Source: Theionarchaea archaeon (GTDB taxonomy: Archaea > Methanobacteriota_B > Thermococci > Methanofastidiosales > SZ-28-30). From it: a DNA stretch of 64,000 nucleotides. The stretch is from the NCBI GenBank assembly GCA_018992685.1, contig JACVGT010000034.1, forward strand, positions 1 to 64,000. Reading direction: 5' to 3'. The notes beneath the pieces are model-generated. The model did not search any database, was not told the DNA's origin, and saw only the letters and a program-made list of their open reading frames with translations. The position numbers were made by a program, and so were the translations under genes. Shown here in pieces: positions 9,159-21,103 of the stretch. Numbering within the stretch: position 1 is the stretch's first letter; each line of letters starts with the position of its first letter.

Positions 9159-9173
9159 GAAAACCTTAAATAC
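9159..9173 (+). promoter_or_regulatory. Archaeal BRE/TATA promoter for the precursor peptide gene
   Basis: GAAAACCTTAAATAC; matches the AAACC(T)TTAAA promoters seen elsewhere in the window. Confidence 0.65.
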
Positions 9174-9217
9174 TTTCCGAAAGAAAACAAGAGTATACGC
9201 AAAGAGGAGGTGACACC

Positions 9218-9310
9218 ATGAAGTACGTAGAACCTGAGGTATTTGAGTTTGCAGAGGAGAGCATAACCGACAAATGCCTCGCCATGTGGGCTACTTTTAC
9301 ACCTACTTAA
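9218..9310 (+). CDS. Putative RiPP precursor peptide, 30 aa (MKYVEPEVFEFAEESITDKCLAMWATFTPT)
   Basis: Below the ORF-track cutoff. Perfect GGAGGTGA RBS, own TATA box, T-tract terminator, YxxPxV RRE-binding motif, directly upstream of the RRE-rSAM. Confidence 0.8.
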   Translation: MKYVEPEVFEFAEESITDKCLAMWATFTPT

Positions 9311-9338
9311 GTAGGAATGACACCCAGCCAAAAAGGAC

Positions 9339-9359
9339 TTATTTTCTTCTTTTTTTTTT
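9339..9359 (+). terminator. Oligo-T archaeal terminator after the precursor gene
   Basis: TTATTTTCTTCTTTTTTTTTT. Confidence 0.6.
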
Positions 9360-9380
9360 GAAAAGCGCAAGCTGGAGCTG

Positions 9381-18413: not shown

Positions 18414-18504
18414 GACACAAGGAACTGGGTCCTCAGGAGGACGTAGTAGATAGCGATTCTTCCTTCATCCAAACACACATGCCCCTTTTAGATTGCACCC
18501 AGGT

Positions 18505-19311
18505 TTAAAAGAAAACAAGTTTTCCACTCTTTTTTGCCAAATGTTCAAAGTAACCCAAGACGAACGAACCGAGACAGAATAGCAGTGCGCCCACTATGAG
18601 CTCACGAGCCAGCAGCATGGGTATGGGTGAGAACTCCTCAATCACGGCGAGGCGAGCAGCTTCTATTCCGTGAGTCAGAGGAATTGCTTTTGAGATATAT
18701 TGAAGAGATTGTGGCAGCATACCAACGGGAAACGTCACTCCACAGAAGAACATCGTAGCAGACAGCATCATGCTGACGATGGGATGAGGCTGTCTGTAAT
18801 ACAGAGCCAGACCAGAAAAAAGCAATCCAAATCCCATCATACTGATAACTGATAGAAATGCGATTACGATCATATACAGGGAGCCCAGAACCGACATTCT
18901 GAGGCCAAACAGGGTGACACCATACAGCAACACGATGAAAATCCCGAATATTCCATCTCCTATGTGGATCGCAGATTTTGCAATATTGAGCAGAGGTCTA
19001 TTCACCGGTGTAGAGAAGAGTAGTTCCAGTGTTCCTTCCCTGCGCTCATTGAAAACAAAGAACATGGGCCCCATCAATGTATTGAACGTAGAAACATACA
19101 GCGCATTTCCCACCACCACGAAATTGATGTAGGACTGTGCATCCTGGCCTGTGAGGGCGGCCCCATAGTCAGATATGAGCACAAATGTCAGGACAAGAAA
19201 GAAGGGAACACCGAGCTTCACAACAACAAAATCTGGTGGGTTGATCCAGGTGAAAAGTGCCCTGTAGGTGAAGATTCCTGTTCTGAACACAAATTTCAAT
19301 GTTCTCATCAT
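18505..19311 (-). CDS. ABC-2 type exporter permease
   Basis: ERREGTLE, GVTFPV..LP, IPLTHGIEAAR. Confidence 0.9.
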   Translation of the reverse strand: MMRTLKFVFRTGIFTYRALFTWINPPDFVVVKLGVPFFLVLTFVLISDYGAALTGQDAQSYINFVVVGNALYVSTFNTLMGPMFFVFNERREGTLELLFSTPVNRPLLNIAKSAIHIGDGIFGIFIVLLYGVTLFGLRMSVLGSLYMIVIAFLSVISMMGFGLLFSGLALYYRQPHPIVSMMLSATMFFCGVTFPVGMLPQSLQYISKAIPLTHGIEAARLAVIEEFSPIPMLLARELIVGALLFCLGSFVLGYFEHLAKKSGKLVFF

Positions 19312-19320
19312 TTTGATCCC

Positions 19321-20115
19321 TCAATAGACTGACAGTTTTCCATCTCTGACTGCTATTTTCCTGATGTACCTGTAGAGGACCACGGCAACCACGAAATACA
19401 CTGCTGTCAGGAATGTAACCATAGCTGCGTCCATCCAGAAGACTGAAGATTCCCAGGCGTTTTGTGACACTGATACCCTTACTGCGTCCAGAGCCCACGT
19501 GAGAGAAAGAGAATAGCTGATAGGCCTCACCCAGAAAGGCAAGACAGATATGGGGAACAACAACCCGCCGAGGACATAGATCATGTACTGCATTAAATTC
19601 ATGAAATACGCAACCCTTCTGGTCAGCATATAGGCTGATGCTAAAACAAGCCCGAATACAGACAGTGTCACGATTGTCATGACGAGAGATACAAGAAACA
19701 GTCCGGGGGATTCAATGTGTATGGGAAGTCGTAGGACGAATTTCCCCACAGCCAGAACGGCTGCAACCGAGACCAGGCCAGTTGCAGCAGAAGAAAGGAT
19801 CTTTCCGAAAGAGAATGTGAAGAGAGAAACAGGTGTCAAGAACATCAACTCCAACGTTCCCTGCATCCGTTCTTGAAAAATAGACTTTCCTCCAAAGGAC
19901 AGCACCATGGCCCAGACTCCAATGAATCCACTGCCAAAGACAACATATGTTGCATAGTCCTGGGAGCTTGTACCTACAAATCTGTAGAGCATTATTACCA
20001 CAAAGGCAACAAACACGGGCTCTACAAACGCATGTATCCCCCACAGGATGTCTGCCCGTTCGTGTTGCAGTTGAGAAATGAACCCACGTCTCAGTGAAAT
20101 CCAGTATGGGTTCAT
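19321..20115 (-). CDS. ABC-2 type exporter permease
   Basis: ERMQGTLE, GLLFPISVLPFW. Confidence 0.9.
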   Translation of the reverse strand: MNPYWISLRRGFISQLQHERADILWGIHAFVEPVFVAFVVIMLYRFVGTSSQDYATYVVFGSGFIGVWAMVLSFGGKSIFQERMQGTLELMFLTPVSLFTFSFGKILSSAATGLVSVAAVLAVGKFVLRLPIHIESPGLFLVSLVMTIVTLSVFGLVLASAYMLTRRVAYFMNLMQYMIYVLGGLLFPISVLPFWVRPISYSLSLTWALDAVRVSVSQNAWESSVFWMDAAMVTFLTAVYFVVAVVLYRYIRKIAVRDGKLSVY

Positions 20116-20116
20116 T

Positions 20117-21103
20117 CTATGACCTCGTCAGTTCCAAGAATACATCTTCGAGCGTGGGGGACCCCTGTTCCACAGAGATGATTTCATGCGTTTTTTCCAG
20201 CAAAGAAACAATATCCTCCACACACACTTTGTCCTGATCAAGCCCAACCTTGAGTTTAGTTGTATTATCCTGTATTCCTGATTCTACATAGTGTACGCCC
20301 TTTCTACTGGTTAATACATGCTCAACCTGAGGAACAACTCCCCTCAGCAGGATGGTGACGGGTGTGACTGTGCCGAATTGCCGTTTTAGGTTCTCGGGGG
20401 TGTCATTGGCTATCAACGTACCCCTGTGAATGATGGCAACACGATCACAGAGCTCGTCTGCTTCAAACATGTAGTGGGTTGTAAGAAAGACAGTCTTTTT
20501 TTCTCGTGTGCACAAATTCCTGATAGTCTTTCGCAGCTCATGGGCAATGGTGGGGTCGAGTCCAAGTGTCGGTTCATCCAAGAAGAGTATGTCAGGATCA
20601 TGGACCAGACCTCGTGCCAGGTGGAGACGTTGCTTCATTCCTTTTGAATATGTTTCCACCTTGCTGTCCGCTCTGTCAGCAATCCCCACGAGTTCCAGGA
20701 GCATGTCAATTCTGTCCATCCGCTCAGAAGAGTCGAGTCCGTAGAGTTCGGCAAATATACGCATATTGTCTCTCCCACTCAGTCTCCAGTAAAGTCCTCG
20801 TTCCCCCCCGAATACCACACTGATCCGTTTCCTCACTTCGTTTGGAGCCTTCAGAATATCATTACCAAGGATGGTAGCGGTTCCTTTGGTAGGCAATAGG
20901 AGTGTGGACAGCATCTTGATCGTAGTAGTCTTTCCCGCCCCATTTGGCCCCAAGAATCCAAAAAGCTCGCCACGATGTACCGAAATATTCAGGTTGTCGA
21001 CAGCTACAATGATTCTGCTTCCTTCACCTCTAATTCTTTTGAAAAAGGAGGGGTATTCTATATATTCTCTTGAAATATCGTAAGTCTTGATTACTGATTC
21101 CAT
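20117..21103 (-). CDS. ABC exporter ATP-binding subunit
   Basis: GPNGAGKTT, YSKGMKQ, LFLDEPT, TTH. Confidence 0.95.
   Translation of the reverse strand: MESVIKTYDISREYIEYPSFFKRIRGEGSRIIVAVDNLNISVHRGELFGFLGPNGAGKTTTIKMLSTLLLPTKGTATILGNDILKAPNEVRKRISVVFGGERGLYWRLSGRDNMRIFAELYGLDSSERMDRIDMLLELVGIADRADSKVETYSKGMKQRLHLARGLVHDPDILFLDEPTLGLDPTIAHELRKTIRNLCTREKKTVFLTTHYMFEADELCDRVAIIHRGTLIANDTPENLKRQFGTVTPVTILLRGVVPQVEHVLTSRKGVHYVESGIQDNTTKLKVGLDQDKVCVEDIVSLLEKTHEIISVEQGSPTLEDVFLELTRS

Follow-up and report, generated by a model that had tools for sequence, protein, structure and literature searches.

A candidate peptide-modification gene cluster joining lasso-type modules to radical SAM enzymes in an uncultured sediment archaeon

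The closest published relatives of the gene cluster examined here are the phosphorylated lasso peptide clusters and, closest of all, the clusters for linear polyphosphorylated peptides (LPP). Statements about published systems, here and below, refer to the sections of the cited sources that we drew on. The clusters for the phosphorylated lasso peptides paeninodin, pseudomycoidin and Bsf contain a discrete PqqD-type recognition element (RRE) for peptides synthesized by the ribosome and modified post-translationally (RiPPs), a transglutaminase-like cysteine protease, an HprK-like kinase with a His/Lys/Asp/Asp pattern, an uncharacterized nucleoside triphosphate (NTP) transferase and an ATP-binding cassette (ABC) pump (PMC9266682, PMC10368454). 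The LPP clusters of Bacillota are a cyclase-less relative of these, combining a stand-alone RRE, a kinase of the HprK-like type, an NTP transferase and a transporter with a leader that begins YxxPxV (Popov et al., Nat Commun, May 2026; PMC13381572). The terms 'radical SAM' and 'rSAM' (radical S-adenosylmethionine) occur nowhere in the text of that paper. In archaea, many rSAM and YcaO RiPP clusters have been predicted and are functionally unexplored, according to a 2025 survey (PMC12144867). Here we describe a cluster at positions 9218-21313 of a 64,000-nucleotide stretch of Theionarchaea DNA (the window; contig JACVGT010000034.1, positions 1 to 64,000), from an uncultured sediment archaeon. 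It shares the listed components with both families, its kinase being HprK-like at the superfamily level, lacks a cyclase as LPP clusters do, and adds three rSAM enzymes and a 475-aa protein. In our judgment the locus is probably a functional RiPP cluster, of a type both rare and undescribed. Its makeup is best taken as lasso/LPP-type modules joined to radical SAM chemistry in an archaeon, a family that we did not find described, and its most likely product, as judged from the sequence, is a small, heavily modified, exported peptide made from a 30-residue precursor.

The open reading frame (ORF) listing resolves the stretch examined (9159-21313) into four tightly packed transcription units. The first, on the + strand, consists of a 30-codon precursor ORF (9218-9310) followed by a gene for a 429-aa rSAM/SPASM protein with a PqqD-like RRE fused at its N-terminus (9381-10670; the public gene call starts at 9387 and gives 427 aa). 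The second, on the - strand, converges on the first and contains five genes that abut or overlap: a discrete PqqD-family RRE, or peptide chaperone (15420-15713), a second rSAM/SPASM enzyme directly downstream of it and with no fused RRE (14364-15419), a transglutaminase-like protein (13739-14359), a methyltransferase-like class B rSAM enzyme with a B12-binding domain (12198-13742) and the 475-aa protein without a family (10734-12161). The third unit, on the + strand and divergent from the PqqD gene, encodes an HprK-like P-loop kinase (16202-17191; the longest ORF starts at 16166 and the public call at GTG 16202) and a PF14907 (NTP_transf_5) nucleotidyltransferase-family protein (17130-18413, with 17130, 17172 or 17181 as its uncertain start). 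The fourth, on the - strand and converging on the third, is a three-gene ABC-2 exporter (21313/21103-18505) with two ABC-2 type permeases (18505-19311 and 19321-20115) and a DrrA-type ATPase (20117-21313; TIGR01188, 317.2 bits against a cut-off of 312.45). The true start of this ATPase is likely ATG 21103, since in the long ORF the ABC domain does not start before residue 106. Pfam models passed at their own cut-offs comprise Radical_SAM (three proteins), SPASM (two), B12-binding, PqqD, Transglut_core, NTP_transf_5, ABC2_membrane (two) and ABC_tran. Thus all of the genes that a sequence-only reading had listed for 9159-21103 are in place.

The precursor gene is the element on which the RiPP assignment turns. 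It encodes 30 residues, MKYVEPEVFEFAEESITDKCLAMWATFTPT, behind a strong Shine-Dalgarno-like site (GAGGAGGTGA, 9204-9213). Its upstream region (9164-9217, + strand) also contains an A/T-rich box, with TATA-like TTAAATA at 9166-9172, that we read as a putative promoter, and a T-rich tract between the precursor and rSAM genes (9343-9359, +) is a possible archaeal terminator or attenuator. The ORF has already been called as a gene in a public protein collection (P0101), and it is single-copy in the host genome, which is 91% complete and is the genome searched throughout for a cyclase, YcaO and paralogues. A metagenome scan returned 15 loci, one of them close: the metagenome contig L004, which at L004:553-645 encodes the peptide MSYVEPEVFEFMEENLTENCLAMWASATPY, identical to the window precursor at 21 of 30 residues. 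By eye, 13 of these 21 residues are specified by different synonymous codons in the two loci, and the DNA flanking the ORF is far less alike and contains insertions and deletions. The identity of the peptide is kept through synonymous codons while its flanks have diverged, the mark of selection on the protein. Both copies also have the Shine-Dalgarno-like site, the upstream A/T box and the downstream T-run, with TTTATAA and GGAGGTGA of L004 falling in the alignment columns of the window's A/T box and Shine-Dalgarno-like site. The proposal that the block is a peptide-centred, RiPP-type cluster is thereby borne out by a short precursor conserved in a homologous locus. A search of the protein collection with the precursor found the window's own peptide alone; so small an ORF is evidently uncalled on other contigs, and this search is uninformative on absence.

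The leader of the window's precursor carries YVEPEV, an instance of the motif YxxPxV that is conserved between the two loci, followed by FEFAEESITDKC. When the motif is placed at the lasso spacing (-17 to -12), residue +1 falls exactly on the conserved Cys20, which predicts the core CLAMWATFTPT, or DK/K-CLAMWATFTPT if cleavage occurs one to three residues earlier. The corresponding L004 core would be CLAMWASATPY, giving the consensus CLAMWA(T/S)xTP(T/Y), with a single conserved Cys, a conserved Trp and neither Asp nor Glu in either core. With Cys20 as +1, residue -2 is Asp or Glu and Thr stands at -3, and hydroxyl residues are conserved near the C-terminus at positions 26 (T/S), 28 (T) and 30 (T/Y). 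The L004 precursor ends in Tyr and the window's in Thr.

The genes around the precursor recur with it. On one strand, L004 contains the peptide and an RRE-rSAM enzyme (60% identity), and on the other a 460-aa homologue of the 475-aa protein (53%), a major facilitator superfamily (MFS) pump, and homologues of the B12-rSAM enzyme (57%), the transglutaminase-like protein (55%), the second rSAM/SPASM enzyme (61%) and PqqD (68%), with the core genes in the same order and orientation as in the window. Beyond PqqD come an M29 peptidase, a pyridoxal phosphate (PLP)-dependent decarboxylase, a 102-aa ORF and, where the examined sequence stops, the kinase's N-terminal part. The M29 peptidase is 65-69% identical to proteins of the window's own genus and 55-58% identical to those of the rest of the order, so L004 comes from a related archaeon. 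A search of 5.8 billion clustered proteins with the RRE-rSAM enzyme gave seven clusters of orthologues (60-74% identity), after which the next match was at 31%. For the kinase, nine orthologues (58-77% identity) were the only matches at E<=1e-5. For five of the seven RRE-rSAM orthologues, the longest contig has the same size as that of a kinase orthologue (13072, 16122, 11886, 17172 and 17710), and we therefore take the two to share contigs. Since the gene set and peptide recur in L004, and since the tiny orthologue sets apparently lie on the same contigs, the arrangement is beyond chance. The 472-aa decarboxylase and the 102-aa ORF of L004 (L004:10022-11745, +) lie just upstream of the kinase and are transcribed the same way. 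The window's genome contains no homologue of either. The decarboxylase may serve as an additional tailoring enzyme or may be next to the kinase by chance.

Outside these orthologues the cluster is scarce. At E<=1e-60, the RRE-rSAM enzyme was absent from all other 132 species genomes of the phylum examined. The kinase had no match in 39 of 40 relatives, among them two genomes of the same genus, 88% and 84% complete, and one of the same family, 91% complete; the exception was a weak match over 65 residues. Homologous DNA was found at no more than 32% identity among the best 80 hits of a genome-contig scan, and two viral-contig scans gave no match. Loci L005-L098 gave no tblastn match to the transglutaminase-like, 475-aa, kinase or PF14907 proteins among the loci listed, each with at least two matches. 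Near-identical short contigs occur in four sediment runs of four further studies. One sediment run (X5) contains, beside a near-identical strain, contigs whose likeness to the window is about 80% in the RRE-rSAM and PF14907 genes (window 9789-10668 and 17217-17899), so two versions of the cluster coexist in one sample. As far as seen, the cluster family is rare, patchy and so far confined to one archaeal lineage.

We then considered whether the kinase side of the locus belongs to the same system as the precursor. The kinase resembles HprK, but its scores lie under the cut-offs of the HprK families (PF07475, 21.7 bits against 33.3; TIGR04352, HprK-related kinase A, 63.9 against 200). Its Walker A loop aligns with that of HPr kinase. 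All of 10 orthologues keep His143, the P-loop GESxxGKTT, Lys164 and Asp181-Asp182, and with them the His/Lys/Asp/Asp pattern reported for lasso-tailoring kinases (PMC9266682). The HprK-like label given in the sequence-only reading thus holds for the conserved P-loop, His and Asp-Asp residues and falls short of family membership. The PF14907 protein scores 103.9 bits against a cut-off of 31.2, matching profile positions 3-248 of 249, and it is the sole PF14907 match in the genome; the kinase is likewise single-copy. Pumps are present at both loci, an ABC-2 exporter in the window and an MFS pump in L004. A paralogous ABC-2 set lies on contig C7 beside other rSAM/SPASM genes (C7:96387-99952).

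The locus might hold two adjacent but separate systems: an rSAM RiPP module (precursor, RRE-rSAM, PqqD, rSAM/SPASM, B12-rSAM and the 475-aa protein) and an LPP- or lasso-like phosphorylation module (kinase, PF14907 protein and exporter), with PqqD and the transglutaminase-like peptidase perhaps shared and with the second module serving another, unseen substrate or only loosely the same one. An LPP kinase, NTP transferase, RRE, peptidase and pump form a self-sufficient set (PMC13381572), the kinase and PF14907 genes form their own transcription unit in the window, and in L004 the kinase is set apart from PqqD by the M29 peptidase (an orthologue with 65% identity lies at another place in the host genome), the decarboxylase and the 102-aa ORF. 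Yet kinase orthologues occur only in step with those of the RRE-rSAM enzyme (10 proteins at E<=1e-5; five contig sizes in common), the kinase, PF14907 protein and precursor are each single-copy in the genome, and no second small conserved ORF was seen. We consider a division into two systems unlikely, and a single RiPP cluster the better account.

The three rSAM enzymes distinguish this cluster from its closest kin. The first (9381-10670) matches Radical_SAM at 80.5 bits and SPASM at 40.4 bits in Pfam. Its PqqD-like RRE scores 22.6 bits against a cut-off of 23.4 in that scan, and the same stretch passes at 25.7 bits in the genome search. In 8 of 8 orthologues the CX3CX2C motif is kept, as are all seven cysteines of SPASM, and the relatives of this enzyme in the Protein Data Bank (PDB) are anSME, the CteB-like 5wgg, SkfB, the SuiB-like 5v1q and PqqE. 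An RRE together with a seven-Cys SPASM rSAM enzyme, and a Cys in the core, are features common with sactipeptide and ranthipeptide maturation (StsB/StsC, SkfB, CteB, PapB). Unlike those systems, the window's core has one Cys only, and the scores lie far under the NCBIfam cut-offs, the best being the sactipeptide maturase StsB (126.6 bits against 625), followed by AlbA (82.9 against 850) and PapB (81.3 against 340). We know of no family of the sactipeptide or ranthipeptide type with a transglutaminase-like peptidase, a kinase and a PF14907 protein. The B12-rSAM enzyme matches B12-binding (40.1 bits) and Radical_SAM (66.6 bits) in Pfam, the domain pair of the B12-rSAM C-methyltransferases of RiPPs, and its scores on NCBIfam models of that kind are again below cut-off (ApyD, its best, 147.4 bits against 750; TIGR03975, 133 against 281.85).

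The second rSAM enzyme, whose best PDB matches are SkfB (E 3.6e-22) and PqqE, raises another possibility, namely that the peptide is a sacrificial scaffold for a cofactor like pyrroloquinoline quinone (PQQ) or mycofactocin. From it the rSAM enzymes, a peptidase and phosphoryl and nucleotidyl transfers would make a small molecule that bears a nucleotide handle and acts as a redox agent or carrier. A discrete PqqD beside a SPASM rSAM enzyme is the arrangement of PqqD/PqqE and MftB/MftC, and the short precursor, here 30 aa with a conserved C-terminal region, and the peptidase are also common with these pathways; a kinase with a nucleotidyltransferase is a pattern of cofactor tailoring. The scores of the second rSAM enzyme on the mycofactocin maturase MftC (161.8 bits) and on PqqE (113.9 bits) fit the idea, but both lie far under their cut-offs (265 and 381.35). 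Unlike PQQ and mycofactocin loci, the cluster contains no equivalents of PqqB/C or MftD/E/F, pumps lie inside or beside both loci, no obvious dependent oxidoreductase is nearby, and the distribution is patchy: unlike a core cofactor pathway, the cluster was not found in the two same-genus genomes, the same-family genome or the rest of the phylum. A cofactor is in our judgment somewhat less likely still than two separate systems.

Leader handling is where the cluster most resembles lasso biosynthesis. The discrete PqqD protein is a stand-alone RRE of the PqqD family, as lasso B1 proteins are (PF05402, 65.4 bits). In the PDB it matches best, though weakly, two of these, TbiB1 (E 0.013) and TfuB1 (0.022), and its score on the NCBIfam lasso PqqD models is below cut-off (37.9 bits against 70). 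A predicted complex of PqqD with the precursor was graded 'weak support' (score 0.54; best of three controls 0.04), with at least 90% of contacts agreeing between runs and a partner predicted local distance difference test (pLDDT) score of at least 58. Among solved complexes, 58 of 80 attain the mark applied, as do 2 of 110 mismatched pairs; with a score of 0.60 or less, it is attained by only 7 of the 80 complexes and by both mismatches. As lasso B1-leader complexes have already been solved, the pass may reflect likeness to them, and we do not count this model as evidence.

The transglutaminase-like protein passes PF01841 (34.5 bits) and is single-copy in the genome, and its Cys106, His148 and Asp162 are identical in both homologues compared, including that of L004. 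It had no NCBIfam lasso-B2 match and no meaningful match in the PDB. On the strength of its sequence, we propose it as a candidate leader peptidase. A review of RiPP leader peptidases, which covers three cysteine-protease families, links the transglutaminase-like C96 family to lasso peptides and, in the sections consulted, names no other class (PMC10885120). Pairs of TldD/PmbA-type metalloprotease genes are also present, in the window at 5740-8435 (+) and 54138-56796 (-) and, with two more, on contig C16; TldD/E enzymes are leader trimmers of some bacterial RiPPs (PMC10885120). The pair at 5740-8435 is 0.8 kb from the precursor. It was considered, with a flavin reductase, for membership of the cluster (5740-9093) and rejected, since no such genes lie beside the L004 precursor, where 552 bases upstream were seen, and since the genome contains several paralogous pairs.

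A lasso product would need a cyclase and an acceptor residue. The sequence-only reading had seen a lasso-style accessory set with no lasso cyclase, and the searches agree with it: Pfam found no asparagine-synthetase-like cyclase (PF00733) among the cluster ORFs, and the sole PF00733 match in the genome is a 391-aa protein on contig C5, beside a helix-turn-helix (HTH) regulator and a TPD-motif protein, that scores 104.1 against 267.1 on asn_synth_AEB. YcaO, which was also said to be missing, was not found in the genome. The macrolactam ring of lasso peptides needs an Asp or Glu at core position 7-9 (PMC10368454), so a core with neither residue, as predicted here, can form no lasso macrolactam. 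By its sequence, the cluster product is not a lasso peptide. A lasso cluster with its cyclase elsewhere, or a decayed one that has lost it, would account for the accessory set described for phosphorylated lasso clusters (PMC9266682, PMC10368454) and for YxxPxV at the spacing of the lasso motif YxxPx[L/V], and it could draw on the C5 gene or on the missing part of the genome. We regard it as very improbable, given the lack of a core acceptor in either homologue, the low score and HTH/TPD neighbours of the C5 gene, and the intactness of all the cluster genes, the core ones recurring with conserved sequences in L004. The window core also lacks the C-terminal Ser or Ser3 of phosphorylated lasso peptides, its hydroxyls being T/S, T and T/Y.

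The cluster also differs from LPP clusters. LPP precursors are 35-200 aa long and phosphorylated on Ser3, and their leader consensus is YxxPxVLxHQxIxFETxxS (PMC13381572). The window's precursor has 30 aa, shares only YxxPxV with that consensus and, wherever cleavage plausibly falls, lacks a Ser as its third core residue. LPP pathways use a SpI/SipW-like signal peptidase and are restricted to Bacillota according to their authors (PMC13381572). The window has the transglutaminase-like protein in place of such a peptidase, Pfam scans of the cluster ORFs found no signal-peptidase family, and the host is archaeal. The suggestion that the combination as a whole was undescribed must accordingly be narrowed. 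Because the LPP family, with its RRE, kinase, NTP transferase and transporter and no cyclase, is now in print (PMC13381572), the absence of a lasso cyclase is by itself no longer unprecedented. What we did not find in the literature is that set together with three rSAM enzymes, a transglutaminase-like peptidase, the 475-aa protein and an archaeal host. In openly searchable full text we found no HprK-like kinase or transglutaminase-like peptidase with a SPASM rSAM enzyme in a RiPP cluster, and no description of this cluster in archaea.

We count the 475-aa protein, which is specific to clusters of this type, as a conserved component of the pathway. It has only two representatives at E<=0.001 among 1.84 billion proteins, no NCBIfam match, no Pfam match even at E<=10 for any of four members, and only chance matches in a profile search of the PDB. 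It had been named as the second of two nucleotidyltransferase-like proteins; that count is upheld for the PF14907 protein, and for the 475-aa protein no Pfam, NCBIfam or PDB family supports it. A conserved GFSDLD motif, and language-model neighbours of which 21-33% carry NTP_transf_2, make a second nucleotidyltransferase a lead only. As a relative of PF14907 it was tried and rejected (hhalign probability 0.4%).

From the gene content and conservation observed, we infer each step of the following pathway. The discrete PqqD, the RRE fused to the first rSAM enzyme, or both would bind the precursor at the YxxPxV motif of its leader. Next, one or more cross-links would be put into the 11-13-residue core by the two SPASM rSAM enzymes, most likely a thioether from the conserved Cys20, a carbon-carbon link at the conserved Trp24, or both, and the B12-rSAM enzyme would add one or more C-methyl groups. 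The HprK-like kinase may phosphorylate a conserved hydroxyl near the C-terminus (residue 26, 28 or 30), and the PF14907 protein may elaborate the phosphate, by analogy with PsmK and PsmN, which phosphorylate pseudomycoidin and then build on the phosphate (PMC9266682). The transglutaminase-like Cys-His-Asp protein, aided by PqqD, would remove the leader near T17-x-x|C20, and the ABC-2 pump would export the product, a role taken in L004 by the MFS pump.

Several observations weigh against this pathway. None of the cluster enzymes reaches the curated cut-off of a specific NCBIfam peptide-maturase family, and each reaction is therefore guessed from superfamily membership. The best NCBIfam matches of the second rSAM enzyme are the heme-pathway proteins NirJ2 and AhbD, at about 180 bits where the cut-off is 500. 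The transglutaminase-like protein fails the lasso-B2 model PF13471 (Transglut_core3; 20.5 bits against 26), and its language-model neighbours are of the generic transglutaminase-core type. AlphaFold2 models were too poor both for it (mean pLDDT 46.4 from a 2-row alignment) and for the 475-aa protein (42.3 from a 4-row alignment). With the core taken to start at Cys20, residue -2 of the precursor is Asp or Glu, whereas lasso leaders have Thr or, rarely, Ile or Val. The leader's W/Y/LxxP-type motif is not lasso-specific, as PqqD uses one and so does the sactipeptide RRE StsC, with which the window is alike in this respect (PMC12710340). Between the PqqD operon and the kinase, L004 has three further genes, and no ABC-2 genes were seen in the part of it examined. 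The comparison at the DNA level covers two loci only, the window and L004. If the small ORF were instead incidental and small molecules such as tetrapyrroles were the substrates of the rSAM enzymes, the NirJ2 and AhbD matches and the low-score NCBIfam likeness of the B12-rSAM enzyme to BchE and lipid methylases would be expected, but all such scores are less than half of the cut-offs, the cluster contains two RRE domains and no adjacent tetrapyrrole genes by Pfam, and the small ORF is under purifying selection, so that this last account, too, is very improbable.

A bolder version of the single-cluster reading is tentative, and we think it rather less likely to be right than wrong. It proposes a new RiPP class in which a lasso/LPP-type cassette for leader handling and phospho-tailoring, made up of PqqD, the Cys-His-Asp peptidase, the HprK-like kinase and the PF14907 protein, is joined to three rSAM enzymes and the lineage-specific 475-aa protein, giving a cross-linked, C-methylated undecapeptide with a phosphate or a nucleotide-linked tail. 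The 475-aa protein might then perform a new, class-defining step, for example an ATP-dependent activation of the C-terminal carboxylate that replaces the lasso cyclase, and the product might be among the first archaeal rSAM natural products. New rSAM-RiPP architectures are common in genome mining.

Other features surround the cluster. The divergent intergenic region between PqqD and the kinase (15714-16201) is unusually long, about 490 bp, and is probably regulatory; ORFs of 161 aa (-) and 95 aa (+) within it have no family match. A PAS-PAS-GAF-PAS sensor protein without an output domain (21669-23279, +) adjoins the exporter and could be a cluster regulator or unrelated. The locus was also examined as a mobile element and as a defence system, and both readings were rejected: it has no flanking long repeats and no shift in composition, and PADLOC gave generic rSAM-core matches to viperin models and no match for five specific proteins. 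An Rfam scan of the window matched tRNA alone, a tRNA-Val (43716-43809, -; anticodon AAC as reported) whose 94 nt match a 71-position tRNA model end to end, the excess length being read as a predicted intron. A further rSAM/SPASM protein lies outside the cluster (37578-38759, +) and exceeds the cut-off of TIGR04084 (AF0577-type; 292.2 bits against 225). A 2026 paper reportedly describes a SPASM rSAM enzyme of methanogens that makes thioether cross-links in proteins, and it may bear on this one.

That the host is an archaeon, as had been read from the letters alone, agrees with the gene content of the window, which includes the TIGR04084 protein above cut-off and a Methanosarcina-type beta-propeller protein, and with a ribosomal protein L21e in the genome, a marker whose control was positive in four archaeal control genomes only. 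The genome has 20 PqqD-family matches, 16 of them over cut-off and many within ORFs of about 450 aa, and it contains three tandem RRE-rSAM genes on contig C3 (C3:57316-61383), four B12-rSAM genes with a PqqD on contig C18 (C18:31506-37390) and, as a further example of its RRE/rSAM-rich stretches, C10:18493-33306. The host may encode many more peptide-modifying clusters, and a genome so rich in RRE and rSAM genes is worth mining.

The cluster itself is a compact target. Its roughly 12 genes and short, conserved, single-copy precursor suit heterologous or cell-free reconstitution, and the function of the 475-aa protein is approachable through a defined substrate. If the reading of this locus as one RiPP cluster is true, the set of RRE, peptidase, kinase and NTP transferase familiar from lasso and LPP biosynthesis in bacteria also functions beyond Bacillota and Pseudomonadota, and it does so beside radical chemistry. 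Such a case would be relevant to the assembly of RiPP pathways from portable modules.

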